From Candidatus Omnitrophota bacterium (lineage in GTDB: Bacteria > Omnitrophota > Gorgyraeia > 2-02-FULL-51-18), in assembly GCA_016197155.1 (NCBI GenBank), contig JACPWF010000024.1, positions 17,432 to 81,431 of the forward strand: a DNA stretch of 64,000 nucleotides, given 5' to 3'. The translations under genes and the position numbers were made by a program. The notes under the pieces are model-generated. The model was given only the letters and a program-made list of their open reading frames with translations. It ran no database searches and was not told where the DNA came from. Of this stretch, positions 1,272 through 34,604 are shown piece by piece (positions within the stretch are counted from its first letter, which is position 1; every line of letters begins with the position of its first letter).

Positions 1272-1618
1272 TAACCTTTCGCGATCTGAACCAGATCCGA
1301 AAAAATCTTCTTATCGTGGTGGGCGAGATCCGCGAGAATCTTGCGGTCAAGCTCGATCTTCGCCTTTTTCAAACCGCCGATGAAACGGCTGTAGGAGAGG
1401 CCGTTGGCCTCCGCGCCCGCGGCGATGCGCGTGATCCAGATTTTCCGGATCACCGACTTCGAATCCCGCCGGTCGCGCGTGGCGAACATGAGCGCGCGCT
1501 GGACGGTCTCGCGCGCGGTCCGGTAAAGCCGGTGCCGTCCGCCGACAAACCCCTTGGCGCGCTTTAAAAACTTGCGTCTCCGCCTCCGTCCGGCGGGTAC
1601 TGTTGCTGCTCTAGGCAT
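1271..1618 (-). CDS. rplT: 50S ribosomal protein L20
   Basis: 115-aa ORF MPRAATVPAGRRRRRKFLKRAKGFVGGRHRLYRTARETVQRAL. Basic protein, classic L20 N-terminus. Confidence 0.95.
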   Translation of the reverse strand: MPRAATVPAGRRRRRKFLKRAKGFVGGRHRLYRTARETVQRALMFATRDRRDSKSVIRKIWITRIAAGAEANGLSYSRFIGGLKKAKIELDRKILADLAHHDKKIFSDLVQIAKG

Positions 1619-1808
1619 AGGGCAAAAGTCTCCTTATCTGATTTTGAAACGCGCCTGTGACGAGATTACTCCCGCGCAAATGCCGCTTGTGTTTCGACGA
1701 TTTGTGCTCCAGGAGATGCCGCTTGCCGGCGCGCATTTTTTTGAATTTTCCGCTTTTGGTGGCGCGGAACCGTTTTTGAACGGATTTATTGGTTTTGAGT
1801 TTAGCCAT
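1611..1808 (-). CDS. rpmI: 50S ribosomal protein L35
   Basis: 65-aa ORF MAKLKTNKSVQKRFRATKSGKFKKMRAGKRHLL. Between infC and rplT. Confidence 0.9.
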   Translation of the reverse strand: MAKLKTNKSVQKRFRATKSGKFKKMRAGKRHLLEHKSSKHKRHLRGSNLVTGAFQNQIRRLLPYA

Positions 1809-1899
1809 TGACTCTCCTTAGATAGATACTAACCTGATCCTTCGACGCGGCGTGCAAAAGCACGCCTTGCTCAGGATGAACTTTTCAAATATGAAAAGT

Positions 1900-2415
1900 T
1901 CACTTAGGCATGATGATCATCGTGATCATCCGGCCTTCCATGTACGGCGCCTTCTCGACTTCCCCGAGGGGGGCGATGTCCTGCGCCAGGCGTTCCAGGA
2001 CCTTCCGGCCGGCGCTGACATAATTCATCTCCCGCCCGCGAAAAACCATCGTGATCTTCGCCTTGTCCCCGTGTTTCAAAAACCGCTCCAGGTTGTGCAG
2101 TTTCACCTGGTAATCGTTTTTTTCAATGAAGGGATGAAACTTGATTTCCTTTAAATGAACGACCTTCTGCTTCTTCCGGGCTTCTTTTTCTTTCTTGGTC
2201 TGGTCATACTTGAACTTGCTGAAATCGATGATCCGGCAGACCGGAGGCGAGGCCTGACCCGCCACTTCCACCAAATCCAGCTCCGCTTCCTTGGACATCC
2301 GCAGAGCCTGCTCAATGCCGACCACCCCCGCCTGATTTCCGTCCTGGTCGATCAGCCTGACTTGAGAAGCGCGAATCGCCTCGTTGATCCGAGTTGTGAT
2401 TTTTGGAATCTTCAA
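1900..2415 (-). CDS. infC: translation initiation factor IF-3
   Basis: 171-aa ORF with IF3 N and C domains (VRLIDQDGNQAGVV..., KEIKFHPFIEKNDYQVKL). The start codon at 2415 reads TTG. IF3 genes typically use an unusual start. Confidence 0.9.
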   Translation of the reverse strand: MKIPKITTRINEAIRASQVRLIDQDGNQAGVVGIEQALRMSKEAELDLVEVAGQASPPVCRIIDFSKFKYDQTKKEKEARKKQKVVHLKEIKFHPFIEKNDYQVKLHNLERFLKHGDKAKITMVFRGREMNYVSAGRKVLERLAQDIAPLGEVEKAPYMEGRMITMIIMPK

Positions 2416-4185: not shown

Positions 4186-4198
4186 TTCAATTCTTTCC

Positions 4199-4320
4199 TC
4201 CCCTTACCAAGGGGAGGTGGTCGCCACAGGCGACCAGAGGGGCAGACGCTTTGCCATCATTCGTCAGCCCATTCACCTCCCCGGTCGCCGCGGCGACCAC
4301 CCCTCCTTAAATAAGGAGGG
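4199..4320. repeat. cluster of GC-rich hairpins in the thrS 5' leader
   Basis: Seen directly: ccccttaccaaggggagg, ggtcgccacaggcgacc, ggtcgccgcggcgacc and cctccttaaataaggagg within 120 nt. The ggtcgccNNNggcgacc hairpin type recurs at 4819-4835. Confidence 0.5.
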
Positions 4321-4328
4321 GAAGATTG

Positions 4329-4406
4329 GGCAATACAGGACTCGCCCGCCAGAGGCGGGTCCGCCTTCGGCGGAAACCTTGTGACCTTTTCCATGTCAAG
4401 GAAACG
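4329..4406 (-). pseudogene. partial duplicate of tRNA-Val (anticodon arm, T arm and 3' acceptor strand) with a ~30-nt double-hairpin insertion in the T-loop
   Basis: gggcaatacaggactcg (17/17) and ttgtgaccttttccatgtcaaggaaacg (27/28) match the tRNA-Val at 4508-4580. They are split by cccgccagaggcgggtccgccttcggcggaaacc. No 5' acceptor or D-arm partner follows. Confidence 0.55.
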
Positions 4407-4507
4407 TCCGCCATCAAAGCGCCGGCGGACGCCCGCCAAAGTTCCAGTGGCGGGCGCTCCAACCCACTGCTTGTCATCCTTCAATCACTATACATCATAA
4501 TTTAAAT

Positions 4508-4580
4508 GGGCAATACAGGACTCGAACCTGTGACCTTTTCCATGTCAAGGAAACGCTCTAACCAACTGAGCTAATTGCCC
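4508..4580 (-). tRNA. tRNA-Val (anticodon GAC)
   Basis: Minus strand reads GGGCAAT TA GCTCAGTTGGTTAGAGC G TTTCC TTGACAT GGAAA AGGTC ACAGG TTCGAGT CCTGT ATTGCCC. Canonical cloverleaf. Confidence 0.9.
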
Positions 4581-4603: not shown

Positions 4604-4689
4604 CGGTGCCGAGGGTGGGAGTTGCACCCACACGACCCGAAGATCAACGGATTTTAAGTCCGTAGCGTCTGCTGTTCCGCCACCTCGGC
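4604..4689 (-). tRNA. tRNA-Leu (anticodon TAA), long variable arm
   Basis: Minus strand reads GCCGAGG TGGCGGAAC... ACGGA CTTAAAA TCCGT TGATCTTCGGGTCGTGT GGGTG CAACTCC CACCC..CCTCGGC A. Acceptor stem is complementary. Confidence 0.8.
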
Positions 4690-4697
4690 TGAAATCG

Positions 4698-4768
4698 AGG
4701 CGCGAACCGGAGTCGCACCGGTGTACGCGGTTTTGCAGACCGCTGCCTCACTGCTCGGCCATCGCGCC
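4698..4768 (-). tRNA. tRNA-Cys (anticodon GCA), discriminator U73
   Basis: Minus strand reads GGCGCGA TG GCCGAGCAGTGAGGC A GCGGT CTGCAAA ACCGC GTAC ACCGG TGCGACT CCGGT TCGCGCC T. Perfect 7-bp acceptor stem and close match to E. coli tRNA-Cys. The T-loop reads TGCGACT (G at position 55), which is unusual. Confidence 0.75.
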
Positions 4769-4804
4769 AAAATCGACTTCCTCTTCCAAATCCTTCTGCG
4801 CTAT

Positions 4805-4865
4805 CTCGTGGTGAGCAAGGTCGCCGTAGGCGACCGCGTCGAACCACTGCTCGGCCATCGCGCCA
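4805..4865 (-). repeat. copy A of the tRNA-associated GC-hairpin element, plus a duplicated 5' 20 nt of tRNA-Cys
   Basis: Minus strand reads GGCGCGATGGCCGAGCAGTG (identical to tRNA-Cys nt 1-20), then GTGGTTCGACGCG-GGTCGCCTACGGCGACC-TTGCTCACCACGAG. The termini match the copies at 21433-21487 and 34553-34604. Confidence 0.6.
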
Positions 4866-4909
4866 ATCCTTCATTCATTTTCGAAAATTCAAAATCGAAG
4901 GCCAGTAAT

Positions 4910-5551
4910 CTAGCAGAAACGATTTTCCGAGTCAATTTGACCCGTTTTTTCGGTCTGACGGACCAAAAAATCCGCCAAACGCGCCTTCGAAAGAAGGCCG
5001 AGGTCCCGCCTTCTGCCCGCTTGATTCAAGACGATAAAATGAACTTTTTTTTCGCCGAACGGCCTTTCTTTTTTCGTCACTTTCTGCAGCACCAAAAGTT
5101 CCAGCGATTTTGATCTCAATTTTTTAAGGCCGTTCGCCAATAGTCTCCCGGACTCCAGCGCAAACCCCACAAAAATCTGATTTTTCTTCTTTGTTTTCGC
5201 CAAATCCGCCAAAATGTCCGGATTTTTCACGAACCGCACGCCCAAAAGCGTTTCTTTTTTGATCTTGGCCGGCGCAACCTTCGCGGGCCTCACGTCGCAC
5301 ACCGCCGCCGCCATGACAAGCACCTCGTGGCGCGCGATGAGCCTCTTCAGTTTTTCCCCGAGTTCGCGCGCGGTCTCCGCGTCCGCGGGACATTCGAGGG
5401 CCGTCACCGCGTGCCCCCTTTTTTTGGCCGCCGCCACCAGGGCCCGCCCCATTTCACCCGTCGAATAATTGGACAAAAAGCGCACCGGGTCCAAGGGCTC
5501 CCGCGTCGGGCCAAAGGCGATGAGAAAGCGGAGCTTGCGACGGGAAAGCAT
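4910..5551 (-). CDS. coaB: phosphopantothenate--cysteine ligase (CoaB domain, encoded separately)
   Basis: 213 aa. DPVRFLSNYSTGEMG motif, typical of the CoaB half of CoaBC. Confidence 0.85.
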   Translation of the reverse strand: MLSRRKLRFLIAFGPTREPLDPVRFLSNYSTGEMGRALVAAAKKRGHAVTALECPADAETARELGEKLKRLIARHEVLVMAAAVCDVRPAKVAPAKIKKETLLGVRFVKNPDILADLAKTKKKNQIFVGFALESGRLLANGLKKLRSKSLELLVLQKVTKKERPFGEKKVHFIVLNQAGRRRDLGLLSKARLADFLVRQTEKTGQIDSENRFC

Positions 5552-9044: not shown

Positions 9045-9081
9045 GTCATCCTGAGGAGGCGCGACCTAGCGCCGACGAAGG
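9045..9081. repeat. palindromic repeat GTCATCCTGAGG...CGAAGGATC (copy 2), immediately 3' of mnmG
   Basis: gtcatcctgaggaggcgcgacctagcgccgacgaaggatc. Hairpin-forming and terminator-like in position. Confidence 0.5.
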
Positions 9082-9082
9082 A

Positions 9083-10903
9083 TCAGTCCACCCTTTTCAA
9101 CTTTTCAATATGGATCGCCAGCACCGAAATATCACAGGGCGTGATTCCCGAAATCCGAGCGGCCTGTCCCAGAGAGGCCGGTTTCGTTCTCTCAAATTTC
9201 TCTTTAGCCTCCCGGCTCATTCCTTTAATTTCACTAAAATTCACAAAATCAGGAATCTTTTTCTCTTCGTACTGCTTCAGCCGGTTCACGAGAGTCTCTT
9301 CTCTTTGAATGTAGCCCGCGTACTTGATCTCGATTTCGACCTGCCTTTCAATTTCTTCATCCTCAATGCCCTCATTTAGGATCCCCAAAACGTCTTTCAG
9401 GCGAATTTCAGACCGCCTAAGGTATTGATCCATAGGCACTTGATTGTATCGGCTTTTACGGATTTTCTCGACCCATTCCTGTATCCTTTTTTGTTTGGCC
9501 GAAAACCGATTAAACTGCTCTTTCGAGATCAGTCCCAGTTCATGGCCATACCCTAGGAGTCTTTTGTCCGCATTGTCCTGTCTCAAAAGTAAACGGTGCT
9601 CGGCCCGCGAAGTAAACATTCTGTAAGGCTCTTCTGTACCATTGGTTACGAGATCATCAATCAGCACGCCAATGTAGGCCTCGGCGCGCCCCAAAATAAA
9701 TGGTTTTTTGTTTCTCATTTTCAGAACCGCGTTGATCCCGGCCATGAGCCCCTGACAGGCGGCCTCTTCGTAGCCGGAGGTGCCGTTGATTTGGCCGGCC
9801 AGATACAGATTTTCTATTTTTTTTGTCTCGAGCGTGTGCTTCACCTGTGTCGGTGGACAAAAATCGTACTCAATCGCGTATCCAAATCTCATAAGTTCAG
9901 TATTTTCAAGTCCTTCAATACTTCTTATAAGTTTTATTTGAAGATCCTGTGGAAAACTTGTTGAAAACCCGTTTATATAAATTTCCTGAGTCAAACGTCC
10001 CTCGGGCTCGAGAAAAAGTTGGTGGCGTTCCTTATCCGCGAAGCGGTAAACCTTGTCTTCGATCGAAGGACAGTAGCGCGGCCCGCGGCTTTGAATTTTT
10101 CCGGAGTAAAGAGGGGAACGGTGAATATTTTCCTTGATGAGCGCGTGAGTTTTTTCGTTTGTATAAGTGAGGTGGCAGGGAAGTTGGTCTTGCGTGATTT
10201 TTTCCGTGTGAAAACTAAAAGGCGTCGGGCTTTCGTCGCCGTGTTGGGCTTCGAGTTTTGAAAAATCGATCGAGCGGGCGTTGAGGCGCGGCGGGGTGCC
10301 GGTTTTGAGGCGCTTGATTTCAAATCCGAGGCCCGCCAGACACCCCGATAGGCCCAGAGAGGGCTTGTCGCCCGCGCGGCCGCCGCCGAACGTCACGTCC
10401 CCGATGTGGATGAGGCCGTTTAAGAAAGTGCCGGTGGTCACGATCACCGCGTTCGCGGCATAAAACGTCTGGATCGTGGTCACGACGCCCTTGACGGCGT
10501 TTCCGTCGGTCAAAATTTCCTTCACCTCGCCCTGCTTCAGATCCAAATTTGCCTGCGACTCCAAAATATTTTTCATCGTCATCGCGTAGAGTTTTTTGTC
10601 GCACTGCGCGCGAGGCGCCCACACCGCGGGGCCCTTGCTCGTGTTTAGCATGCGGAATTGGATGCCGGTTTGGTCGGTGACGCGCGCCATTTCGCCGCCG
10701 AGCGCGTCGATCTCGCGCACGATGTGGCCCTTGGCGATGCCGCCGACGGCGGGATTGCAGGACATCTGCGCCACGGAGTCGATATTCATGGTGAGCATCA
10801 AGGTTTTCGCGCCCATTCGCGCGGCGGCAAGCGACGCCTCACAGCCGGCGTGTCCGGCGCCGATCACGATGACGTCGTATTTTTTTTCGGAGATCCCGTT
10901 CAC
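9083..10903 (-). CDS. mnmG: tRNA uridine 5-carboxymethylaminomethyl modification enzyme MnmG (GidA)
   Basis: The ORF frame extends to 11305, but conservation starts at VNGISEKKYDVIVIGAGHAGCEA (FAD-binding GxGxxG). A GTG at 10903 overlaps the yidC stop (GTGA). Length ~607 aa, typical for MnmG. Confidence 0.9.
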   Translation of the reverse strand: MNGISEKKYDVIVIGAGHAGCEASLAAARMGAKTLMLTMNIDSVAQMSCNPAVGGIAKGHIVREIDALGGEMARVTDQTGIQFRMLNTSKGPAVWAPRAQCDKKLYAMTMKNILESQANLDLKQGEVKEILTDGNAVKGVVTTIQTFYAANAVIVTTGTFLNGLIHIGDVTFGGGRAGDKPSLGLSGCLAGLGFEIKRLKTGTPPRLNARSIDFSKLEAQHGDESPTPFSFHTEKITQDQLPCHLTYTNEKTHALIKENIHRSPLYSGKIQSRGPRYCPSIEDKVYRFADKERHQLFLEPEGRLTQEIYINGFSTSFPQDLQIKLIRSIEGLENTELMRFGYAIEYDFCPPTQVKHTLETKKIENLYLAGQINGTSGYEEAACQGLMAGINAVLKMRNKKPFILGRAEAYIGVLIDDLVTNGTEEPYRMFTSRAEHRLLLRQDNADKRLLGYGHELGLISKEQFNRFSAKQKRIQEWVEKIRKSRYNQVPMDQYLRRSEIRLKDVLGILNEGIEDEEIERQVEIEIKYAGYIQREETLVNRLKQYEEKKIPDFVNFSEIKGMSREAKEKFERTKPASLGQAARISGITPCDISVLAIHIEKLKRVD

Positions 10904-18892: not shown

Positions 18893-21358
<2,466 letters not shown>

Positions 21359-21373
<15 letters not shown>

Positions 21374-21433
21374 CCTGGCTTAGGACATCACCCTTTCACG
21401 GTGATGACACGGGTTCAAATCCCGTTGGGGTCG
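21359..21433 (+). tRNA. tRNA-Glu (anticodon TTC)
   Basis: GACCCCA TC GTCTAGCCTGGCTTAGGAC A TCACC CTTTCAC GGTGA TGAC ACGGG TTCAAAT CCCGT TGGGGTC G. Nearly collinear with E. coli tRNA-Glu. Overlaps the last codons of gyrA. Confidence 0.85.
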
Positions 21434-21484
21434 TGGATTCGACGCGCCGTGAGGAAAAGTATTTCCTCACGGCTTGCTCACCAC
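21428..21484 (+). repeat. 57-bp direct repeat, copy B (left boundary of the nitrate/Moco block); begins in the tRNA-Glu 3' end
   Basis: gggtcgtggattcgacgcgccgtgaggaaaAGTAtttcctcacggcttgctcaccac. Identical to 34548-34604 except that the 4-nt hairpin loop is reverse-complemented. Confidence 0.8.
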
Positions 21485-21620
21485 GAGCCTAGTCGAATCC
21501 ATAGCCGACTTTCAACAAAATTTTAAAATGATTTTCGTTTTTAACTTCCGATTCACATCTCCGTAACATTCACCCGTATCATGACCATCCTGCGAGCAAA
21601 AAACCATAAAGGCGCGGAAG

Positions 21621-22310
21621 ATGAGGGAAAAACGGCACTTGGAAGTCTTGTACCAAATAAGCCGCGCCCTCGTGGGAAAGCAGGATTTGGACGCTATCCT
21701 TCAGCAGGTCGTCACGATGACGGCGGAGCTGGTAGGTTCTAAAATTTGTTCTTTGATTTTGTTGGACTTGGGCAGAGATGAGCTGGCCATAAAAGCAACC
21801 CAGAGTCTCAGTCTTTCCTACAAGGAAAAACCGAACATTCCGGTGAGCCGCAGTGTCAGCGGAATGGTGATCAGGAAAAAGCAGGCCATTCAAGTGGGAG
21901 ATGTCACGAAGGATCCGCTGTACGGCTATCCCGAGATCGCCAAGCAGGAAGGTTTAAAGTCGCTTTTGTGTGTGCCGCTGGTGCTCTCGGGCAAGGTGAT
22001 AGGCGTTCTGAATTGTTACACGGAAGAGGAAAAAGTTTTCACAAACGAGGAAATACAGCTTGTTCAAATGGTGGCCAATCAGGCGGCCATCGTCATTGAA
22101 CACGTCCGGGTTGTTTCCGAAGAGGCGCGGGCCAAACTCGCCCTCGAGACGAAAAAAGCCGTGGATGCCGCTAAACGCGTTTTGATGAAGAAACGCAAAA
22201 TAAGCGAAGAAGAGGCCCATCGGTTCATTCAGCGGGCCAGCATGGAGAAAAATAAGCCGCAAAAGGAAATTGCCGAAGCTGTTCTCATGGCAGTGGAACT
22301 AGAAAAGTAG
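21621..22310 (+). CDS. GAF-ANTAR RNA-binding antitermination regulator (NasT/AmiR-like)
   Basis: 229 aa. N-terminal GAF (LGRDELAIKATQSL...GVLNCYTEEE). C-terminal ANTAR with coiled-coil (ALETKKAVDAAKRVLMKKRKISEEEAHRFIQRASMEKNKPQKEIAEAV). Confidence 0.8.
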   Translation: MREKRHLEVLYQISRALVGKQDLDAILQQVVTMTAELVGSKICSLILLDLGRDELAIKATQSLSLSYKEKPNIPVSRSVSGMVIRKKQAIQVGDVTKDPLYGYPEIAKQEGLKSLLCVPLVLSGKVIGVLNCYTEEEKVFTNEEIQLVQMVANQAAIVIEHVRVVSEEARAKLALETKKAVDAAKRVLMKKRKISEEEAHRFIQRASMEKNKPQKEIAEAVLMAVELEK

Positions 22311-22327
22311 CCGAAAAAGTTTTATTT

Positions 22328-22371
22328 AAGGATAAAGACGTCCTTATTTTGGAGGGAGTCAATGGCGACTC
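22328..22371 (+). promoter_or_regulatory. candidate ANTAR dual-hairpin RNA target in the nirB leader
   Basis: AAGGAU-AAAGAC-GUCCUU and GAGUC-AAUGGC-GACUC. Two stems with hexaloops carrying A at position 1 and G at position 4, 10-nt linker. U-run at ~22388. Confidence 0.55.
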
Positions 22372-22407
22372 CGATCAAGATAAGGACTTTTTATTTCTGA
22401 GGGTTTT

Positions 22408-24855
22408 ATGAAGCCAAGGCGTCTCGTAGTGATCGGAAACGGCATGGCAGGCATGGCCTGCCTGGATGAGATTCTAAAAAGAAAGCCGAATTTTGAGATC
22501 ACGGTTTTCAGCGAGGAACCTTATTTCAACTACAATCGCATTTTATTGTCCGCCGTGTTGGCCGGTGAGAAAACGGCCGACGAGATTTACATCAACACCG
22601 AAGAGTGGTACCGCCAGAACCGGATCACGCTCCATTTGGGCGAAAAGGTTGTCGAAGTGGACTCGAAAAACAAAACCATTCTTACGGAGAAAGGCTATTC
22701 CTTCGACTACGACACCCTCCTTTTGGCCACAGGCAGTCATCCCTTTATTCCGCCCATCGAAGGCACGAGCAGAAAAGGCGTTTACGTTTTCAGAAATCTG
22801 AAGGATACGGGCCGTATTTTAGAGCACTGCAAATCCGCTCGAAAAGCGGTCGTGATCGGCGGCGGACTCTTGGGCCTTGAGGCGGCGCGTGGGCTACTCA
22901 ATCGCGGACTCGAGGTGACTGTGGTTCACCTCATGGACCGTTTGATGGATGTTCAACTCGACGCCGTTGGCGGACAATTCTTGAGACGGGAGATCGAGAA
23001 ACTTGGCATCGAGGTCCTGCTCAATAAGAATACCGAAAAACTCACGGGCGGCGAAAGTGTCGAGGGGGTGCTTTTTAAAGACGGCTCAATGATTCCCGCG
23101 GACATGGTCGTGATGGCCTGCGGGATACGGCCGAATGTCGAACTGGCCAGGCAAGCGGGTCTGAAAGTGAATCGCGGGATTGTCGTCAATGACAGGATGG
23201 GGACAAGCGATCCGAGTATCTTTGCGGTGGGCGAATGCGTGGAACATCGCGAGAAGGTTTACGGTCTTGTGGCGCCGCTCTATGACCAGGGAAAAATTTT
23301 AGCGGCCACGATGACCGGCGAAAGAGGGCCGGTTTATGAGGGATCGACATTGGCAACCAAGCTCAAAGTGATGGGCATAGAGCTTTTTTCGGCCGGTGAT
23401 TTCAAGGGGGATGAACCCGACAAAGAAGTGGTCGCCTACCAGGACCATGCGTTTGGCGTCTATAAGAAGATTGTGGTTCATCAAGAGCGCGTGGTAGGCG
23501 CGATCTTGATAGGGGACGCTTCGGACGCCAACCGTTTTCTCGAAATGATGCGAAAAAAAGAACCCGTCGGAGATAAACGGCATCATTTGCTTTTTGATGC
23601 GCCACTTGCATCGCCCGGTTCAACGACCGACGTCATGTCCCGTCCCGACGGAGACACGATTTGTGGCTGTATCGGCGTGACCAAAGGCCAGATCGTCACC
23701 GCGATCCGCGAAAACAATCTCAAGACCGTTTCGGCGGTAAAAGCTTGCACGAAAGCTTCCTCGGGATGCGGCACTTGCGCGGGACTTGTGCAGGAAATGG
23801 TAAAGGCCGTGGCCGGCTCAACATTCGAAGAAGAAAAAAAAGAAGTTTTGTGCGCGTGCGTGCCTTTTCCGAAAGAACAACTGCGGACGATGATTAAAAC
23901 TCAAAATCTTAAGTCCGTGCAGGATGTTCTCGATATCTATGGCAACGGCATGGGGTGCTACTTTTGTAAACCGGCCTTGAGCTTCATCGTGGACGAGGTG
24001 CATCTGGGTGAACATAAAGAAGACCGCTCGGCGCGATTTATCAACGACCGCGTCCATGCCAATATTCAAAAAGACGGGACGTTTTCCGTCGTGCCCAGGA
24101 TGCGCGGGGGCGTGACGAATCCCAAAGAGCTTCGTAAAATTGCGGATGTCGCGGAAAAGTACAAAGTGCCGATGGTAAAGGTTACCGGAAGCCAGCGCCT
24201 CGATCTTTTGGGGGTAAAGAAAGAAGACTTGCCGAAAATATGGGCGGAGCTTGGAATGACGTCCGGTTATGCTTACGCAAAAGCGGTGCGAATGGTGAAG
24301 TCCTGCGTCGGAACCGATTTTTGCCGTTATGGCACGCAGAATTCCATTGCGACGGGAATTAAATTAGAAGAATTGCTCGAAGGGCTTTACACCCCGGCAA
24401 AAGTCAAAATGGGCGTCGTGGGCTGTCCGCGCAATTGCGCCGAGGCGACCGTCAAAGATATCGGGCTTGTCGGCATCGAAGGCGGCTGGCAGGTGGTGAT
24501 CGGCGGCGCCGCGGGGAAGAGTGTGCGTGCGGCGGATATTCTTTGCACGGTGAAAACGACCGAGGAAGCGCTGGAAGCGGCTTTGCTTTTTTTCCAATAT
24601 TACCGGGAGAACGGAGAGTATCTGGAGCGCACTTATGATTTCGTGCCGAGAGTCGGTCTCGAAAAAATCCGCCGCGAGACGGTGCTGGCTTCCGAAGAAA
24701 AGAAAACAGCGCTTTTGGGTCATCTGGAGAAAGCGAAAGCAAAAGCGGTGAATCCGTGGGCGGTGGAATCGGAGAAACCGGCGCATCCTTATCAATTTCA
24801 GGATTTTGTTTTGCCGAAAGACACACAAGCGCTTGTGTTTCAAGAGAGCCTGTGA
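22408..24855 (+). CDS. nirB: assimilatory nitrite reductase [NAD(P)H] large subunit
   Basis: 815 aa. FAD/NAD Rossmann folds (RLVVIGNGMAG, KAVVIGGGLLGLE), BFD-like 2Fe-2S, sirohaem/4Fe-4S nitrite-sulfite reductase domain. Confidence 0.9.
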   Translation: MKPRRLVVIGNGMAGMACLDEILKRKPNFEITVFSEEPYFNYNRILLSAVLAGEKTADEIYINTEEWYRQNRITLHLGEKVVEVDSKNKTILTEKGYSFDYDTLLLATGSHPFIPPIEGTSRKGVYVFRNLKDTGRILEHCKSARKAVVIGGGLLGLEAARGLLNRGLEVTVVHLMDRLMDVQLDAVGGQFLRREIEKLGIEVLLNKNTEKLTGGESVEGVLFKDGSMIPADMVVMACGIRPNVELARQAGLKVNRGIVVNDRMGTSDPSIFAVGECVEHREKVYGLVAPLYDQGKILAATMTGERGPVYEGSTLATKLKVMGIELFSAGDFKGDEPDKEVVAYQDHAFGVYKKIVVHQERVVGAILIGDASDANRFLEMMRKKEPVGDKRHHLLFDAPLASPGSTTDVMSRPDGDTICGCIGVTKGQIVTAIRENNLKTVSAVKACTKASSGCGTCAGLVQEMVKAVAGSTFEEEKKEVLCACVPFPKEQLRTMIKTQNLKSVQDVLDIYGNGMGCYFCKPALSFIVDEVHLGEHKEDRSARFINDRVHANIQKDGTFSVVPRMRGGVTNPKELRKIADVAEKYKVPMVKVTGSQRLDLLGVKKEDLPKIWAELGMTSGYAYAKAVRMVKSCVGTDFCRYGTQNSIATGIKLEELLEGLYTPAKVKMGVVGCPRNCAEATVKDIGLVGIEGGWQVVIGGAAGKSVRAADILCTVKTTEEALEAALLFFQYYRENGEYLERTYDFVPRVGLEKIRRETVLASEEKKTALLGHLEKAKAKAVNPWAVESEKPAHPYQFQDFVLPKDTQALVFQESL

Positions 24856-25175
24856 TGACCGTCCAGTGGTTTCCGGTCGCGGAGCTCGGCGCCATCCCGA
24901 AAAATGAGGGCCGGAAAGTTTCGTTTGGCGAAATAGAAATTGCCTTGTTCAATTTGGGCGAGGAATACCGCGCTGTGGATAACCGCTGTCCACACAAGCA
25001 GGGACCATTGGCGGATGGGATCGTGTCGGGAAAGTCGGTTTTTTGCCCGTTACACAGTTTGAATGTCAGCCTGGAGAATGGCTGCGCGATTCGCGGCGCG
25101 GGATGCGTGAAGGTTTATCCGGCGAAAGTAATGGGCGCGAGGGTTTGCGTTGCTTTTTATGAAGGGAAACAATGA
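24855..25175 (+). CDS. nirD: nitrite reductase small subunit (Rieske-like)
   Basis: Conserved part starts MTVQWFPVAELGAIPKNEGRKV. CPHKQGPL...CPLH Rieske motif. ATG overlaps the nirB stop. Confidence 0.85.
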   Translation: MTVQWFPVAELGAIPKNEGRKVSFGEIEIALFNLGEEYRAVDNRCPHKQGPLADGIVSGKSVFCPLHSLNVSLENGCAIRGAGCVKVYPAKVMGARVCVAFYEGKQ

Positions 25176-25525
25176 AAGAGATCGTGGCGATTATTCGTCC
25201 TCAAAGGGATCGGGCGACAAAAGAAGAGCTTGTGAAAATCGGTTGTTTGACTTGCACGACGTTTCGTGTTTACGGGCGAGGCAAACAGCGGGGGCTCACG
25301 TATAAGTCGGCTTTGGGAAACGGCTCAGCGCCGGTCGGCATGAAGTACCTGCCGAAGAAAATGGTTTACCTCATGGTGAATGACCAGCAAGTGAAACCGA
25401 TTGTTCAGGCGATTTTACGCGCCAATCAAACCAGTCAATACGGGGACGGAAAGATCTTCGTGACCGATTCGAAGGAAGTGGTGAGAATCCGTACGGGAGA
25501 AAGAGGAGAGGTGGCGATTCGATGA
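25172..25525 (+). CDS. PII (GlnB/NifI-like) nitrogen regulatory protein
   Basis: 117 aa. MKEIVAIIRPQRDRATKEEL...GDGKIFVTDSKEVVRIRTGE. Confidence 0.8.
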   Translation: MKEIVAIIRPQRDRATKEELVKIGCLTCTTFRVYGRGKQRGLTYKSALGNGSAPVGMKYLPKKMVYLMVNDQQVKPIVQAILRANQTSQYGDGKIFVTDSKEVVRIRTGERGEVAIR

Positions 25526-25839
25526 AGATGATCAAGGCCGTGATACGGCCCGAAAGAGAATCAGAGGTTCTGAGCGGACTTGAGAAAGAAGGGTTTTATT
25601 CGCTCACAAAGTGGGACGTCTTGGGACGTGGTCGTCAAAAAGGTGTCCAGGTCGGCAAGACGACCTACGATGAACTGGCAAAACTATTGCTCATGGTCGT
25701 CGTAGAAGACGTTGACTTAAAAAGAGCCATTGAAACGATCGAGACTCATGCGCGAACCGGTAATTTCGGAGACGGAAAGATTTTTGTTTCAGACGTGAAA
25801 GAGGCGTACACCATCCGCACCGGCAAAAGCCGGTTGTGA
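25522..25839 (+). CDS. PII (GlnB/NifI-like) nitrogen regulatory protein, second paralog
   Basis: 105 aa. MKMIKAVIRPERESEVLSGLEKEGF...GDGKIFVSDVKEAYTIRTGK. Confidence 0.8.
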   Translation: MKMIKAVIRPERESEVLSGLEKEGFYSLTKWDVLGRGRQKGVQVGKTTYDELAKLLLMVVVEDVDLKRAIETIETHARTGNFGDGKIFVSDVKEAYTIRTGKSRL

Positions 25840-25868
25840 TTTTACATTCATAAGAAAGGAATTTACGA

Positions 25869-27104
25869 ATGAGGATCAAGGATTTCGTAAAAAGCGGCCA
25901 TCCCCCCACGCTTTTTTCAGCTTTTTTGTATTTTGACATCAGTTTTATGGTTTGGGTACTGATCGGCGTCCTGGGAGTTTACATCGCCAAGGATTTTGGC
26001 TTGAGCGCGACGCAAAAAGGTTTCATGGCGGCAATCCCGCTTCTGGGCGGGGCGCTCGTGCGTATTCCCCTGGGCCTTCTCGTCGATCACATCGGACCCA
26101 AAAAAACAGGGATGATCGCTCAAGCCGCCGTGATCCTGCCGCTTTTGGGAATTTGGCTTTTTTCGCCGGCGCTTGACGCCGTGCTCGCATTCGGTCTTCT
26201 TTTGGGGATCGCCGGAGGAAGCTTCGCCGTGGCACTGCCTCTGGCGAGCCGTTGGTACCCGCCGAAACACCAAGGCATGGCGCTCGGAATCGCTGGAGCG
26301 GGGAATAGCGGCACGGTTTTGGCGAGTCTTTTTGCGCCGCGTTTGGCTGAAGTCTTTGGCTGGAGAAACGTCTTTGGCCTTGCGCTTCTTCCGGTCGCGG
26401 CCGCCTTTGTCATTTATTTGGTCCTGGCCAAGGAAAGTCCGCAGCAGCCTCAGCCGAAAAGGCTCGGAGAGTATCTCTCCGTTTTTAAAGAAACCGATAC
26501 GTTCTGGTTCTGCTTTTTTTACAGCATCACTTTCGGCGGCTTCGTCGGCTTGGCCAGTTTCCTGGGAATTTTCTTTCACGATCAATACGGACTGACCAAA
26601 ATAAATGCCGGCTATCTGACGGCATGTTGCGTTGCGGCCGGGAGTTTTGTCCGGCCCGTCGGCGGGTATCTCGCCGATCGCTTTGGCGGCATCCGGATGC
26701 TTTCGGTTCTGTTTGGTTTGATTGCGTTCTTCATGATGGGAGTGGGTTCTTTGCCGACGGTTTTGACGGCAACCGTTCTTATGTTTTGCGGCATGGCGTG
26801 CTTGGGCATGGGCAATGGCGCGGTATTTCAGCTTGTGCCTTTACGATTTCAAAAGGAGATCGGGGTCATGACGGGCATCGTGGGCGCGGCGGGCGGCTTG
26901 GGCGGTTTTTTCTTCCCCACGCTTTTAGGTTATTTCAAGGATAGGGCCGGATCTTATGGCGTGGGCTTTAGGGTGTTTGCGGTGGCAAGCTTTGCGGCGC
27001 TTGTGATTTTAAGGGTTGTCCAACGCGGGTGGACTTTTTCACGGATCGTGAAAGAGATTCCGGTACTTGAGGCACACATGGTGGTTCAGTCTATCGAAGA
27101 TTAG
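25869..27104 (+). CDS. narK: MFS nitrate/nitrite transporter (NarK/NasA family)
   Basis: 411 aa, 12 TM. Nitrate-transporter signature GGALVRIPLGLLVDHIGPKK and GMACLGMGNGAVFQLVP. Confidence 0.85.
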   Translation: MRIKDFVKSGHPPTLFSAFLYFDISFMVWVLIGVLGVYIAKDFGLSATQKGFMAAIPLLGGALVRIPLGLLVDHIGPKKTGMIAQAAVILPLLGIWLFSPALDAVLAFGLLLGIAGGSFAVALPLASRWYPPKHQGMALGIAGAGNSGTVLASLFAPRLAEVFGWRNVFGLALLPVAAAFVIYLVLAKESPQQPQPKRLGEYLSVFKETDTFWFCFFYSITFGGFVGLASFLGIFFHDQYGLTKINAGYLTACCVAAGSFVRPVGGYLADRFGGIRMLSVLFGLIAFFMMGVGSLPTVLTATVLMFCGMACLGMGNGAVFQLVPLRFQKEIGVMTGIVGAAGGLGGFFFPTLLGYFKDRAGSYGVGFRVFAVASFAALVILRVVQRGWTFSRIVKEIPVLEAHMVVQSIED

Positions 27105-27108
27105 AATG

Positions 27109-29310
27109 AACTGGAAAAATTTTGTCGAGATGATGGTCGTTTACGAAGAGGGCGAAGAAACCCTCTGGGAAACGAGCTCTATTCCGGATAAGGAACTTCG
27201 CTGGGGAAAATCCGTGTGCCCTTATTGCGGCGTAGGCTGCGGGGTTCTGGTGGGGGAGAAGGAAGGCAAGATCCATAAAGTTCGCGGGAATCCGGAACAC
27301 CCCGCCAATCGGGGCCTTCTTTGCGCGAAAGGAGGCACGCTTCCCCTCATGCTGGATACGCCCGACCGTCTCAGTTTCCCCTCCCTTCGTGAAAAGGCTT
27401 CTTCGGAATTTGAGCGTGCCAACTGGGAAAAAACGCTGGGATTCATCGCCGAGAAGACCAAGGCCGTATTGAAAAACGACGGGCCCGAGGCATTTGCTTT
27501 TTATATTTCGGGCCAGCTTCTCACCGAAGATTATTACGTCGTGAATAAACTCGCGAAGGGCTTCCTTGGCACGAACAACGTGGATTCAAACTCCCGCCTT
27601 TGCATGGCCAGCGCCGTCGCCGGTTATATGACCTCACTCGGCGCGGATGGTCCGCCGACCTGTTATGACGATATTGAAGAGTCGAATTGTTTTTTCCTGA
27701 TCGGCACCAACACCGCGGCCTGCCATCCCGTCACCTTTCAGCGCATTAAAAACAGAAAGGCTTCGAACCCGAAAGAGATAAAGGTGATCGTCGCAGATCC
27801 CAGAAGAACTCGCACGGCGGAAATGGCCGATCTTCATCTTCCCTTAAAACCGGGCACGGACGTGGCGCTTTTGAACGCGATGCTTCACGTGATTGAAAAA
27901 GAAGGCTACCTGGATCAGGCATTTATCCGGAATCATACAGCGGACTGGGAAAAGTTGAAAAATATTCTTCCGCTTTATTCTCCGGAAAAAGCCGCTGAAA
28001 TTTGTGGCATCGAAGCCTCACTCATCCGGGAAGCGGCGCTTCTTTTTGCGAAGGCCTCTTCGGCCCTGAGTTTTTGGAGCATGGGCCTGAATCAAAGTTC
28101 CAGCGGCGTTGCCAAGAATAACGCGGTGATCAACCTGCATCTGGCCACGGGAAAAATAGGAAAGCCGGGGTCAGGCCCTTTTTCGCTCACCGGTCAGCCG
28201 AACGCGATGGGTGGAAGAGAAACCGGCGGCCTGGCGCATCTTTTGCCGGGGCATCGTCTCATCGGGAACGAACGACACCGCGCCGAGATGGAGCAGTTTT
28301 GGAATGTGGCTGAAGGTCGGATTTCACCCACGCCCGGCCTCACTGCGATCGAGCTCTTCCGCGCGGTCGAGGCGGGAAAAGTGAAAATCATTTGGATTGT
28401 CGCGACCAATCCCCTCGCTTCGATTCCGAATCTCAATTTTGTGAAGGCGGCCCTGGCCAAAGCGGAGCTTGTCATCTGCCAAGACGTCTATCATCCCACC
28501 GAGACAACGCACATGGCGCATGTGCTTCTCCCGGCCGCGCAATGGTCGGAGCGGGACGGCACGGTGACCAACTCCGAGCGGCGGGTCTCTTATTTGGAAA
28601 AAATCAGAGAACCGCCCGGGGAAGCAAAGCCCGACTGGCAGATTTTCTGCGAATTTGCGCGCCGAATGGGTTTCGAAAAAGAATTTTCATTTGAAAGCGC
28701 CGAAGACATCTACGAGGAATACAAAAAAACCACGCGGGGAACCGGCGTCGATATCGGCGGCGTATCGTACGCGCGGCTCAAAAAGGAATTCATTCAATGG
28801 CCTTGTCCGGATGAACATGCGGGATCCACCCCTCGGCTTTACACGGATTTTCGTTTTCCGACTTCGGATGGAAGAGCAAGGTTTCAGGCGCGCGAGTACG
28901 CGCCGCCTGCGGAGCCGACGGATGAGGCCTATCCTTTCATTCTCACCACCGGCCGCGTTCGTGACCAGTGGCACACAATGACACGCACGGGAAAAATCGA
29001 CTCGCTTCTCAAAGCCGAACCTTATGCCTTCCTCGAGCTTCATCGGGACGATGCCGAAAAGCTTGGAATTGGAGAAAACGAGATGGTGGAGGTGCACACG
29101 CGTCGCGGCTTTGCCAAGGCGCCGGCCCATCTTTCGGAAAACATTCGGCCCGGCACGTGCTTCATGCCTTTTCACTGGGGGTCGTTGTGGGGCGAGGCGG
29201 ATATAAACGCGGCGACGGTGGATGCGTTTGATCCCATTTCGAAACAGCCGGAGCTCAAATTTTGTGCGGCACGATTAACGAGGCTCGAACCGGTGAAAGC
29301 GGAAACGTAA
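27109..29310 (+). CDS. nasA: assimilatory nitrate reductase catalytic subunit (molybdopterin oxidoreductase)
   Basis: N-terminal 4Fe-4S motif CPYCGVGCG, MGD-binding domains. The ORF frame opens at 27067, but ATG 27109 follows the narK stop. Confidence 0.85.
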   Translation, partial: NWKNFVEMMVVYEEGEETLWETSSIPDKELRWGKSVCPYCGVGCGVLVGEKEGKIHKVRGNPEHPANRGLLCAKGGTLPLMLDTPDRLSFPSLREKASSEFERANWEKTLGFIAEKTKAVLKNDGPEAFAFYISGQLLTEDYYVVNKLAKGFLGTNNVDSNSRLCMASAVAGYMTSLGADGPPTCYDDIEESNCFFLIGTNTAACHPVTFQRIKNRKASNPKEIKVIVADPRRTRTAEMADLHLPLKPGTDVALLNAMLHVIEKEGYLDQAFIRNHTADWEKLKNILPLYSPEKAAEICGIEASLIREAALLFAKASSALSFWSMGLNQSSSGVAKNNAVINLHLATGKIGKPGSGPFSLTGQPNAMGGRETGGLAHLLPGHRLIGNERHRAEMEQFWNVAEGRISPTPGLTAIELFRAVEAGKVKIIWIVATNPLASIPNLNFVKAALAKAELVICQDVYHPTETTHMAHVLLPAAQWSERDGTVTNSERRVSYLEKIREPPGEAKPDWQIFCEFARRMGFEKEFSFESAEDIYEEYKKTTRGTGVDIGGVSYARLKKEFIQWPCPDEHAGSTPRLYTDFRFPTSDGRARFQAREYAPPAEPTDEAYPFILTTGRVRDQWHTMTRTGKIDSLLKAEPYAFLELHRDDAEKLGIGENEMVEVHTRRGFAKAPAHLSENIRPGTCFMPFHWGSLWGEADINAATVDAFDPISKQPELKFCAARLTRLEPVKAET

Positions 29311-30291
29311 ATGAAAGATAAATACGGGCGTGAACTGACCTATTTGCGGGTGTCGCTGATCGACCGTTGCAATCTCCGCTGTTTTTACTGCATGCCTCAT
29401 GGCCTCCTCAGTCCTTTTCGTGAGGACGAATTATTGACTAGGGATGAAACAGCCGAAATTATTTCCATTTTCGCGGAATTGGGAATATCCAAAGTGCGTC
29501 TGACGGGCGGCGAGCCGCTTTTGAAAAAAGGCGTTCCGGAGCTTATTCGCCGGATCAAAAAATTCTCCGGCATCCGCGAAGTCGTGATGACGACCAATGG
29601 CGTGCTCTTAAAGCCGTTTGCGGAAGATCTGAAAGCGGCGGGGCTGGATCGCATCAACGTGAGCCTGGACACGTTGAACAGGGAAAATTTTAAGCGCATC
29701 ACCGGCATGGATAAGTTGGAGGATGTCTTGGGCGGCATGGAAGCCGCGGCGCGGGCCGGAATCGGACCCATCAAAATCAATGCGGTTTTGATGAAAGGGT
29801 ATAACGACGAGGAAGTCATGGATCTTGTCCGATTCGCCATTGCGGGGTCTTTTCAAATTCGTTTCATCGAATGGATGCCGACGGCCGGCGCGATCCATTC
29901 GGTGAGAGAAAACCGTTTCCTGAGCTCGGAGTTCGCAAAAAAAATTGTCGAAGAAAAATACACTTTAATTCCGGATGATTCCAATCCTCATGCGCCGGCG
30001 AGAAGTTTTTATATCGAAGGCACAAAGTCAAGCGTGGGGTTCATCAGCCCGCTCTCCAACGCTTTTTGCGCGATGTGCAACCGTCTGCGCCTGAAAGCCA
30101 ACGGCATGATGAAAACCTGTTTGCACGGCAAGGAGGATCTGGACATCCAATCGCTTTTGCGAAAAGGCTGTTCGCGGGAGGAAATCAAAGAAAAGATCGT
30201 GTCGGCGGTATGGGATCGTCCCGAAGAGCATTTTCTGAATAATCAAGCCGTGCCTCATCGCGATTTTGTGATGACAGCGGTGGGAGGGTAA
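29311..30291 (+). CDS. moaA: GTP 3',8-cyclase MoaA (radical SAM)
   Basis: 326 aa. CNLRCFYCMP radical-SAM cluster motif, C-terminal auxiliary cluster CAMCNRLRL. Confidence 0.9.
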   Translation: MKDKYGRELTYLRVSLIDRCNLRCFYCMPHGLLSPFREDELLTRDETAEIISIFAELGISKVRLTGGEPLLKKGVPELIRRIKKFSGIREVVMTTNGVLLKPFAEDLKAAGLDRINVSLDTLNRENFKRITGMDKLEDVLGGMEAAARAGIGPIKINAVLMKGYNDEEVMDLVRFAIAGSFQIRFIEWMPTAGAIHSVRENRFLSSEFAKKIVEEKYTLIPDDSNPHAPARSFYIEGTKSSVGFISPLSNAFCAMCNRLRLKANGMMKTCLHGKEDLDIQSLLRKGCSREEIKEKIVSAVWDRPEEHFLNNQAVPHRDFVMTAVGG

Positions 30292-31945: not shown

Positions 31946-31946
31946 A

Positions 31947-33173: not shown

Positions 33174-33222
33174 CCCTTCGACAAGCTCAGGGTCATGGTG
33201 AGCGAGCGAAACGAGCCGAACC

Positions 33223-33465
33223 ATGAAAATAAAAATCCTTTTTTTTGCCGAGCTTAGGGAAATTTTTGGGGGATCTCGATTTATCGACGTGAGAGAAGAC
33301 TTAACAGTCGGAGAAGTCGTGGACCTCTTGGAGGATGAACTCAACCAGTCTTATTCCAAAAGAGATTCTCTAATCTACGCGGTCAACGAAAATTTTGAAA
33401 CAACAGATAAAAAGCTAAAAAACCTCGATGAATTGGCGCTCATGACGCCCATGTCAGGGGGCTGA
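33223..33465 (+). CDS. moaD: molybdopterin synthase sulfur carrier subunit MoaD
   Basis: 80 aa. Ubiquitin-like, ends ...LALMTPMSGG (Gly-Gly C-terminus). Confidence 0.85.
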   Translation: MKIKILFFAELREIFGGSRFIDVREDLTVGEVVDLLEDELNQSYSKRDSLIYAVNENFETTDKKLKNLDELALMTPMSGG

Positions 33466-34463: not shown

Positions 34464-34547
34464 GATTTGAGGTTTCTCCTTCGTAAATTTTCCTTTTAAA
34501 ACGGCAGTATAGCCGCTATTCCGAAGGTTCTTTGTTTTATGCAAATA

Positions 34548-34604
34548 GGGTCGTGGATTCGACGCGCCGTGAGGAAATACTTTTCCTCACGGCTTGCTCA
34601 CCAC
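34548..34604 (+). repeat. 57-bp direct repeat, copy C (right boundary of the nitrate/Moco block)
   Basis: gggtcgtggattcgacgcgccgtgaggaaaTACTtttcctcacggcttgctcaccac. Preceded only by the last 6 nt of the tRNA-Glu sequence. Confidence 0.8.

Follow-up and report, generated by a model that had tools for sequence, protein, structure and literature searches.

What are the short GC-rich hairpins that lie beside tRNA sequence in the genome of a Candidatus Omnitrophota bacterium (NCBI GenBank assembly GCA_016197155.1), and do they act as DNA or as RNA? The question is raised by a stretch of 64,000 nucleotides (contig JACPWF010000024.1, positions 17,432 to 81,431 of the forward strand; hereafter the window), for which an earlier note had described three such elements with conserved termini (copies A, B and C), each next to a tRNA gene or tRNA fragment, and had proposed a miniature mobile element, recombination-site remnants or a structured RNA family. 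The pattern TTCGACGCG-N(10-40)-CTTGCTCACCAC has exactly three matches in the window (4808-4843 on the minus strand; 21438-21484 and 34558-34604 on the plus strand) and none in 100 dinucleotide-preserving shuffles of it, with 0 expected. Two further points of that description were borne out: the hairpin of copy A is unlike that of copies B and C, and each copy abuts tRNA sequence, i.e. a 22-nt duplicate of tRNA-Cys at A, the discriminator base of tRNA-Glu at B, and the bases GGGTC at C. The reading favoured here, to which we give about an even chance, is that of a short palindromic DNA repeat, of which the hairpins are non-autonomous copies and which is similar to repetitive extragenic palindromes (REPs) and their paired forms (REPINs) or to miniature inverted-repeat transposable elements (MITEs).

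The copies are members of a sequence family, as had been supposed, and not the outcome of one duplication, with the same unit found at 46 loci elsewhere. One genome per species was scanned with the pattern TTCGACGCG-N(10-40)-CTTGCTCACCAC, which gave 76 loci; 30 of these are coincidences in coding sequences with neither hairpin nor outer pairing, and 46 have the architecture of the unit (given with L numbers below). According to the record titles, 21 of the 46 loci belong to Planctomycetota, 20 to Omnitrophota, and five to others (Parachlamydiaceae, one "Nitrospirae" metagenome-assembled genome (MAG), one "Deltaproteobacteria" MAG with two contigs, and one that is unclassified); almost all of the 46 are in MAGs of Planctomycetota or Omnitrophota. 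Paralogous units within one genome are represented by B and C in the window and by L013 and L039 on one contig. A phage origin was rejected, since the unit architecture is rare on viral contigs (about three of 120 motif matches). No matching family was found in Rfam 15, for the window at gathering thresholds or for the full elements of L063 and L027 at E<=10.

The unit comprises about 50 bases in the order x, TTCGACGCG (box A), variable hairpin, CTTGCTCA (box B) and x'; the two ends, x and x', are reverse complements. The outer stem x/x' has 4-7 bp and occurs in several types (among them GTGG/CCAC, (CC)ATCC/GGAT(GG), CCATGG/CCATGG, ACCC/GGGT, GCCC/GGGC and GTGA/TCAC), and boxes A (9 nt) and B (8 nt) are conserved and unpaired, 17 nt in all. 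The inner hairpins have 4-17 bp, loops of 3-10 nt and a G-C start (the invariant pair G16-C46 in alignment A1), and are for the most part perfect palindromes whose sequences are unrelated, even where the units follow orthologous tRNAs in related genomes (L009, L011, L035, L066). Related inner hairpins, AAAAACCTCTC...GAGAGGTTTTT, which resemble bidirectional terminators, were seen in L035, L045, L066 and L009; the hairpin 'cargo' therefore has subfamilies shared between genomes.

Compensatory changes, for which a covariance model had been suggested as the check, are present in both stems. Alignment A1 comprises 49 sequences, in which the inner-hairpin sample was pre-selected for folding and the x stem was not. 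In the named structure, 77% of its cells are paired, compared with 54% when shuffled, and the covariation score is 0.56, compared with 0.20; none of 500 shuffles reached 0.56, and slid controls gave 0.19 or less. Both x/x' and the inner hairpin covary, i.e. the outer GTGG/CCAC is a covarying stem. The eleven scored stem pairs contain 442 Watson-Crick, 10 GU and 16 AC cells, and the GU and AC counts therefore favour neither strand.

The commonest full form of the element is an inverted dimer, i.e. unit 1 and then unit 2, on opposite strands around a shared centre (e.g. CCAC-CATCC). Most of the 46 loci are inverted dimers, of which 29 complete ones were extracted when the 150 nt downstream of each match were read. 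The dimers start with TTCGACGCG and end with CGCGTCGAA, which are terminal inverted repeats, and they can fold either as two separate units or as a four-way junction with TTCGACGCG paired to CGCGTCGAA and CTTGCTCA paired to TGAGCAAG. Flanking repeats of at least 10 nt are present in only four of 31 dimers; together with that of copy A they measure 10-22 nt, and all are 5' segments of tRNAs. Partial boxes crowd the dimer spacer of L079 (1354-1494), where GGTTCGA and TGAGC occur three times each and GTCGAAG twice; this points to repeated nested insertion or slippage inside the elements.

Placement of the units was examined with a covariance model of the repeat unit (R1), which identified 85 units in the 46 loci, and with ARAGORN, which identified 42 tRNAs in the same loci. 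Sixteen of the 85 units, i.e. at 16 of the 42 tRNAs, start at position -2 to 0 relative to the 3' end of a same-strand tRNA, with box A leading in all of them, and no reverse-oriented unit abuts a tRNA 3' end among these 85. The tRNAs concerned are specific for Gln (seven), Leu (three), Glu (two), Met, Asp, Arg and Val. Where the genome encodes CCA, these bases form the first half of x (CCATCC or CCATGG); otherwise the discriminator base is directly followed by an x of the form (G)TGG. In five cases (copy A, L040, L046, L056 and L058) an intact tRNA lies downstream of the element, and a duplicate of the first 10-22+ nt of that tRNA stands before the element. Remnants of tRNA 3' ends abut units as well: 22 nt of tRNA-Gln in L072, 230 nt downstream of the intact gene; a tRNA-Leu fragment in L078; TTGGGGTCG in L059; and GGGTCG at copy C. 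Locus L059 (5130-5225, minus strand) is without a tRNA; its TTGGGGTCG, identical to the 3' end of the tRNA-Glu of the window, stands directly before the unit and again 25 nt after it, and resembles a duplication flanking an insertion. The association with tRNA genes is thus real for about a fifth of the units, and it does not extend to the rest: about 80% of the units, and three of the six copies in the window, are not at tRNAs.

A protein-coding gene accompanies the repeat at some of the loci. Small open reading frames (ORFs) that start with MWY(L/V)YI...G..YTG lie 7-40 nt after dimers, and encode the GIY-YIG catalytic domain (PF01541) in about 92 amino acids. When the ORFs over the 46 loci were clustered (8-kb windows), GIY-YIG formed the largest cluster (10 of 46 loci), followed by Glu/Gln-tRNA synthetases, which derive from synteny with tRNA-Gln; no cluster of integrases or transposases, including REP-associated tyrosine transposases (RAYT/Y1), was obtained, and GIY-YIG is the only repeat-linked family in these windows. 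In a reciprocal test, six GIY-YIG homologues were picked without the DNA motif, and their loci were scanned with R1 and ARAGORN. All four homologues of >54% identity have tRNA sequence and/or unit boxes directly upstream, in the order tRNA-Leu, unit, inverted unit and GIY-YIG gene (P0022), tRNA-Leu 3' fragment, hairpin, inverted unit (34 bits) and GIY-YIG gene (P0015), or tRNA-Leu, hairpin, short inverted unit and GIY-YIG gene (P0042), and with a tRNA-Asn 105 nt upstream and box-like remnants on both sides of the gene in P0057. The same two programs detected neither tRNA nor unit at the two most distant homologues (46-47% identity). The GIY-YIG gene of L072 has dimers on both sides. A conserved unit 3' of the GIY-YIG genes is otherwise absent, except for a mini-unit in L086, and the cassettes have a precise 5' boundary and a variable 3' boundary.

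The window itself has no gene with both an intact GIY...YIG N-terminal half and the catalytic Arg/Glu, while intact genes adjoin dimers in other genomes, and contains one 5'-truncated GIY-YIG pseudogene (38804-38968). This has 48% identity over 46 amino acids to residues 34-79 of the L045 GIY-YIG protein (BLASTP, E 5e-13) and aligns with positions 36-75 of PF01541 at 16.4 bits, under the cut-off of 22.6. It is located between a membrane-protein gene and a CrcB-like gene, and no repeat unit was detected beside it. No published description of the element was found in the literature on GIY-YIG/tRNA/REP, Planctomycetes, YhbQ/COG2827, Omnitrophota repeats or the box sequences; the family, widespread and with its precise tRNA-tail preference and GIY-YIG partner, is apparently undescribed.

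The copies in the window, which was scanned with R1 with filters off, are summarized in Table 1 together with the features beside them.

Table 1. Repeat units, tRNA genes and associated features in the window (positions are those of the window)
Feature	Position	Strand	Evidence and remarks
Unit D	1837-1877	+	R1 50 bits, E 3.8e-12; absent from the earlier note
tRNA-Val	4507-4580	-	ARAGORN and Rfam
tRNA-Leu	4605-4689	-	ARAGORN and Rfam
tRNA-Cys	4697-4768	-	ARAGORN and Rfam
Unit A	4808-4847	-	pattern match; R1 56.9 bits, E 3.5e-14, best match in the window
Unit A, x	4847-4844	-	GTGG
Unit A, box A	4843-4835	-	TTCGACGCG
Unit A, hairpin	4834-4820	-	GTCGCC-TAC-GGCGAC
Unit A, box B	4819-4812	-	CTTGCTCA
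Unit A, x'	4811-4808	-	CCAC
22-nt exact duplicate of spacer and tRNA-Cys 5' end	4845-4866	-	identical to 4749-4770
Unit F, probable, degenerate, weak	9045-9086	-	R1 13 bits, E 0.21
tRNA-Glu	21359-21433	+	ARAGORN and Rfam; sole plus-strand tRNA
Unit B	21433-21484	+	pattern match; R1 47.2 bits
Unit B, x	21433-21436	+	GTGG, followed by a bulged A
Unit B, box A	21438-21446	+	
Unit B, hairpin	21447-21472	+	
Unit B, box B	21473-21480	+	
Unit B, x'	21481-21484	+	CCAC
Partial inverted copy of box A, GTCGAATCC	21492-21500	+	pairs with GGATTCGAC 21435-21443 in the fold of 21358-21500
Segment bracketed by B and C	21485-34547	+	Pfam scans, gene list, composition
Mini-dimer E	33172-33224	both	R1 33192-33227 (-) 25.5 bits, E 4.8e-5; R1 33170-33196 (+) 13.1 bits
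Unit C	34553-34604	+	R1 44.6 bits; 34548-34604 with the five upstream bases GGGTC
5'-truncated GIY-YIG pseudogene	38804-38968	+	C-terminal half only; preceded by a stop codon; tblastn E 6.8e-5

At unit A, the tRNA-Cys duplicate precedes the unit on the same strand and its end falls within x; the intact tRNA-Cys is 39 nt downstream of the unit. A sigma-70-like match (TTGACT-17-TAGATT with TG; a consensus match only) is located at 4907-4935 on the minus strand, upstream of the tRNA-Cys fragment, of unit A, and of the tRNA-Cys, tRNA-Leu and tRNA-Val genes, and unit A would sit in the leader of a tRNA operon if this promoter match is functional.

The first base of x in unit B, G21433, is also the discriminator base of tRNA-Glu. 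The GTCGAATCC downstream of B matches the '..GTCGAA-CCAYCC' remnant of long-loop dimers elsewhere (e.g. L061, L043), and B therefore looks like a dimer that was cut off after its first unit. A stretch further downstream (21583-21627, plus strand; CCATCC-TGCGAGCAA...GCGCGGAAGATG) resembles a decayed inverted unit by eye, is below the reporting limit of R1 and is not claimed here; its end overlaps the start codon of the GAF-ANTAR gene, and B would be a long-loop dimer if the stretch were real. Upstream, the gyrA coding sequence runs with its final five codons and stop codon into the first 15 nt of tRNA-Glu (21359-21373), an unusual overlap that may be the trace of a rearrangement at this locus.

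The bases GGGTC before unit C are identical to the 3' end of tRNA-Glu, and the same five bases precede B. Units B and C thereby form a direct repeat of 57 nt (21428-21484 and 34548-34604; repeat family D6), 13,120 bp apart, with a reverse-complemented hairpin loop (AGTA in one, TACT in the other) as the only difference. To judge from the two sequences, this difference is a single inversion of the palindrome and not four point changes, i.e. a DNA-type event in which the loop flipped as a block, and B and C are recent paralogues.

With the additional units found by R1, the window contains five to six monomer or mini-dimer copies. Unit D (ATCC-TTCGACGCG-GCGTGCAAAAGCACGC-CTTGCTCA-GGAT) lies between infC (1900-2415, minus strand) and rpmI (1611-1808, minus strand), antisense to the operon and with no tRNA nearby. 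Mini-dimer E reads GACCC-TTCGAC-AAGCTCA-GGGTC on the plus strand, followed by the inverted unit ATGG-TGAGCGAG-CGAAA-CGAGCCGAA-CCAT; it occupies the moeA-moaD spacer, and the ATG of moaD (33223-33225) overlaps its x'. Unit F reads GATCC-TTCG-TCG-hairpin-CTC-CTCA-GGATG.

The earlier note had also counted the hairpins between tRNA-Val and thrS (4199-4500) as degenerate relatives of the family. These were rejected as family members: R1 detected no match in 4199-4500, even at E<=10 and with filters off, and the stretch consists of a pseudo-tRNA-Val and unrelated hairpins. The CAGTGGGTTGGAGCG found there is the D-arm of the pseudo-tRNA-Val, and the GGTCGCC-N-GGCGACC hairpins share only the variable hairpin of copy A and have no family boxes; hairpin modules therefore occur independently of the boxes. 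The pseudo-tRNA-Val (4326-4470, minus strand) is directly downstream of the real tRNA-Val, and contains a 27-nt exact copy of the anticodon-arm region (repeat family D20). Four CCGCC-N-GGCGG hairpins break up the pseudo-tRNA, two within the T-loop after GGTT. At this T-loop position a GC hairpin also interrupts the tRNA-Gln 3' remnant of L072, and such tiny insertions of hairpins would seem to be a class of their own. The thrS leader (4196-4325, minus strand) is predicted to be very stable (325-nt fold, z = -6.6), and its hairpins (CCCCTCC/GGAGGGG and GGTCGCC-N-GGCGACC) are able to sequester the Shine-Dalgarno region; neither a T-box nor any other Rfam family matched, and the leader may be regulatory.

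The 13.1-kb segment between B and C encodes, according to Pfam, a GAF-ANTAR regulator, a NirB-like nitrite reductase, two P-II proteins, an MFS transporter, a molybdopterin nitrate reductase, MoaA, MoaC/MogA, TauE, MoeA, MoaD, MoaE and MobA, i.e. all of its ORFs have metabolic or regulatory domains. It is flanked by gyrB and gyrA upstream and by a PrcB-family gene downstream, and its G+C content of 0.49-0.57 is like that of the flanks. No integrase, transposase or recombinase was found between or beside B and C in Pfam scans of the ORFs around the copies. Recombination between such units as B and C could have inserted this nitrate/molybdenum-cofactor cluster, or could delete it; a circle form of the segment would carry a junction of mobA, unit and GAGCCTAGTCGAATCC.

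The main rival to a repeat that acts as DNA is a structured RNA that acts in cis as part of the tRNA or operon transcript, in which the stem x/x' with the conserved internal loop and the hairpin, or the cloverleaf-like four-way junction as alternative fold of the dimers, would direct the processing of 3' ends, the stability of the transcript or the translation of the following gene, with CCA or a Shine-Dalgarno-like GAAGGA sequestered in the x stem. Such a role would fit with the finding that each tRNA-adjacent unit lies on the strand of the tRNA with box A first, that x either has an initial U, next to the discriminator base, or includes the encoded CCA, that the T-loop pentanucleotide UUCGA lies inside box A, that the boxes are invariant across two phyla with covarying stems, and that inverted units lie 7-40 nt upstream of the start codons of GIY-YIG genes, rpmI and moaD; the promoter-like site at 4935-4907 (minus strand) would likewise place unit A in a tRNA operon leader. 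However, GU cells are not above AC cells (10 and 16), the hairpins form perfect palindromes whose sequences are unrelated even at the orthologous tRNAs of L009, L011, L035 and L066, no Rfam family, ribozymes included, was matched at E<=10, and the dimers carry the boxes on both strands, so that conservation is not strand-specific. Away from tRNAs there is no orientation bias, with six sense and five antisense monomers between co-directional genes, as counted with crude gene calls in a small sample. We regard an RNA-level function as unlikely, if still a serious contender. The pair counts of the stems, the palindromic hairpins, the flipped loop of B and C, the unbiased orientation and the absence of terminators together favour a DNA-level element, and among the natures proposed earlier the miniature mobile element is the best reading, with a strand-specific structured RNA disfavoured by the GU and AC counts, the unbiased orientation and the lack of a matching Rfam family.

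For B and C taken by themselves, the 57-nt repeat might instead be the att core of a genomic island (attL/attR), whose 13.1-kb cluster was integrated beside tRNA-Glu by site-specific recombination, with copy A as an unrelated similarity. As in the tRNA att sites of islands, direct repeats that start in the tRNA (here in the last 6 nt of tRNA-Glu) flank a coherent metabolic module, and tRNA 3' remnants adjoin units elsewhere, also downstream of an intact tRNA (L072). Unlike at such sites, there is no integrase or recombinase between or beside B and C, the composition is not foreign, and only 5-6 nt of tRNA-Glu are repeated; moreover, unit E lies inside the segment, and the unit occurs at three to four other places in the window and at 46 loci elsewhere without islands, i.e. 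the repeat is a member of a dispersed family first. A classical integrase island was rejected for B and C on the grounds of the lacking integrase and compositional shift, and we consider the att explanation as a whole improbable. A derivation of the copies from degenerate tRNA or transfer-messenger RNA (tmRNA) genes, as relics of T-arm and acceptor or as a permuted tRNA-like gene, is suggested by the T-arm-like GGTTCGA, by GCTCACCA, which is like an acceptor 3' end with A73-CCA, and by GAGCAAG/CTTGCTC of the dimer, which could form a 7-bp acceptor-like stem. Against this, neither ARAGORN nor the Rfam models RF00005 and RF00023 gave a score for the copies, with only the four true tRNAs found in the window, the hairpin arms have no D- or T-loop consensus, and x is variable (GTGG, ATCC, CCATGG, ACCC, GCCC), so that CCA is not constant. 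A tRNA or tmRNA identity was rejected on the ARAGORN and Rfam results, and a relic origin is very improbable; the mimicry of the tmRNA 5' consensus seen earlier proved superficial, as GGATTCGAC is the variant of B and C only (family consensus TGGTTCGAC) and no tmRNA was found by either program. Ordinary intrinsic terminators or chance GC hairpins would account for intergenic GC-rich hairpins, some of which are followed by T runs elsewhere (L016, L031, L020), but a terminator scan lists no unit of the window, the T tail being absent, and the 17 conserved nucleotides outside the stems have 0 chance matches expected. Terminator scan and shuffles refute a terminator identity for the window copies, and we can hardly credit this explanation for the family.

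The DNA-level action of the repeat, its mobility, and the role of the nuclease as driver of its spread are what we infer, and several observations weigh against them. No fixed-length target-site duplication was found among 31 dimers; GIY-YIG genes are present at only about a fifth of the loci, and to our knowledge domain-only GIY-YIG proteins are not known as transposases. Selfish repeats do not usually show such conservation as that of the 17 box nucleotides across two phyla, which could instead stem from a host function. The single orientation of all tRNA-adjacent copies fits a role in tRNA transcripts too, box A contains the UUCGA of T-loops, and the orientation test has to be read with its crude gene calls and small sample. 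No relative of the source MAG was found for a comparison of filled and empty sites: a metagenome scan for the B/C variant gave none, the search with the PrcB protein matched only itself, and MobA matched only one Logan contig, of the same sequence.

For the DNA repeat as favoured here, the complete form would be an inverted dimer placed after the discriminator base of a tRNA, often with a GIY-YIG nuclease gene (about 92 amino acids) within 7-40 nt. The nuclease, or a host recombination system acting on palindromes, would break junctions of tRNA tail and unit, and repair of these breaks from other copies would spread the units and give rise to the neighbouring partial tRNA duplications. Break and repair at these junctions would explain the spread of the units, the precise 5' and variable 3' boundary of the cassettes, and the partial tRNA duplications. 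The window would represent a decayed system, with its five to six copies and the truncated GIY-YIG pseudogene, and B and C, as 57-nt direct repeats, would either mark an insertion of the cluster by unit recombination or make the cluster deletable. In its widest form, which we put forward tentatively and at clearly less than even confidence, this would be a new mobile element common to Planctomycetota and Omnitrophota, composed of a minimal GIY-YIG nuclease and a structured palindromic repeat that homes to the exact 3' boundary of tRNAs of many specificities, seeds hundreds of non-autonomous units, reshapes tRNA loci (partial duplications, pseudo-tRNAs) and brackets or moves metabolic clusters, i.e. 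a GIY-YIG counterpart of the REPIN-RAYT system.

The nearest described class is that of the CGTC-tagged REPs (Di Nocera et al. 2013, PMC3733652). These are GC-rich extragenic stem-loops with an unpaired CGTC (or TGTC/CCTC) tag and a CCA-like tail, which occur mostly as head-to-head dimers that fold separately or as one large hairpin, and for which no dedicated Y1 transposase is known; their stems are conserved, with 8-9 bp, A/T pairs at positions 1-2 and loops of 4-5 nt, and the related repeats RPE sometimes insert into RNA and protein genes (PMC3733652). The present family resembles them in the dimers, and may do so in an unpaired CGTC-type tag by the stem (...CG-CGTC-GAA on the reverse strand) and a CCA-type tail: compared by description, a distance of 2 nt separates the CGTC in CGCGTCGAA from the hairpin, and CCAC is a frequent x', but eight conserved nucleotides stand between hairpin and CCA. 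It differs in stems that vary freely, with the conservation residing in two unpaired boxes (9 + 8 nt) and with an extra outer stem, and in hairpins of 4-17 bp with a G-C start and loops of 3-10 nt; moreover, CGTC-tagged REPs are not reported from Omnitrophota, nor tied to tRNA 3' ends or GIY-YIG genes.

With the REP/REPIN-RAYT systems the family shares dispersed intergenic palindromes, inverted dimers as the likely mobile form, monomer remnants and an associated nuclease gene with repeats on its flanks; unlike these systems, it has no GTAG tag in the unit consensus, no conserved stem sequence, a GIY-YIG gene as neighbour in place of an HUH/Y1 transposase, and a placement specific to the ends of tRNA genes. 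Bacterial MITEs (Correia/NEMIS, RPE, ERIC) are likewise non-coding elements of 50-150 bp with inverted termini, here TTCGACGCG...CGCGTCGAA in the dimers, and insert between or within transcription units with possible overlap of start codons; the family differs in having no fixed target-site duplication and no parent insertion sequence with a DDE transposase, and in its modular, variable internal hairpins. Similarities to integron attC sites are the structure-based recognition, arms of free sequence, an unpaired central part, a terminal hairpin of variable length, and a gene module bracketed by two sites in direct orientation. Unlike in attC, the cores RYYYAAC/GTTRRRY are absent, the outer stems are GTGG/CCAC, ATCC/GGAT, CCATGG and others, the conserved part is the unpaired region, and no IntI or cassette array was seen among the ORFs around the copies, which were those scanned.

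The Seg proteins of phage T4 are free-standing GIY-YIG homing endonucleases of >200 amino acids with DNA-binding domains, and SegB acts in a tRNA gene region. The GIY-YIG genes described here likewise lie between genes beside tRNA genes, with a presumed spread by break and repair; unlike the Seg genes, they encode the catalytic domain of about 92 amino acids alone, are chromosomal in bacteria of the Planctomycetes-Verrucomicrobia-Chlamydiae (PVC) group, and accompany a palindromic repeat that multiplies also without the gene. Self-cleaving ribozymes, such as the 'theta' ribozymes similar to those of hepatitis delta virus (HDV), are also placed after tRNAs, and both kinds of structured element start exactly at the tRNA 3' end. 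In contrast to HDV-like ribozymes, the helix order of the unit is stem, internal loop and hairpin, and not a nested double pseudoknot, and no match to self-cleaving ribozymes (HDV-like, hatchet, twister, pistol, hammerhead) was obtained with Rfam 15.

For annotation, the units are liable to confuse the prediction of tRNAs, small RNAs and terminators in MAGs, and covariance model R1 can flag them. If the reading as a DNA repeat is true, PVC-group bacteria carry a dispersed repeat system based on a nuclease superfamily for which no tie to REP-like elements had been known, with an unusually precise insertion point, i.e. the base after the tRNA discriminator. It would provide a testable model of the action of domain-only GIY-YIG proteins, which are widespread, and would account for the pseudo-tRNAs of these genomes and for their partial tRNA duplications. 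Recombination between units would then be a route for the gain and loss of modules such as nitrate assimilation in Omnitrophota.

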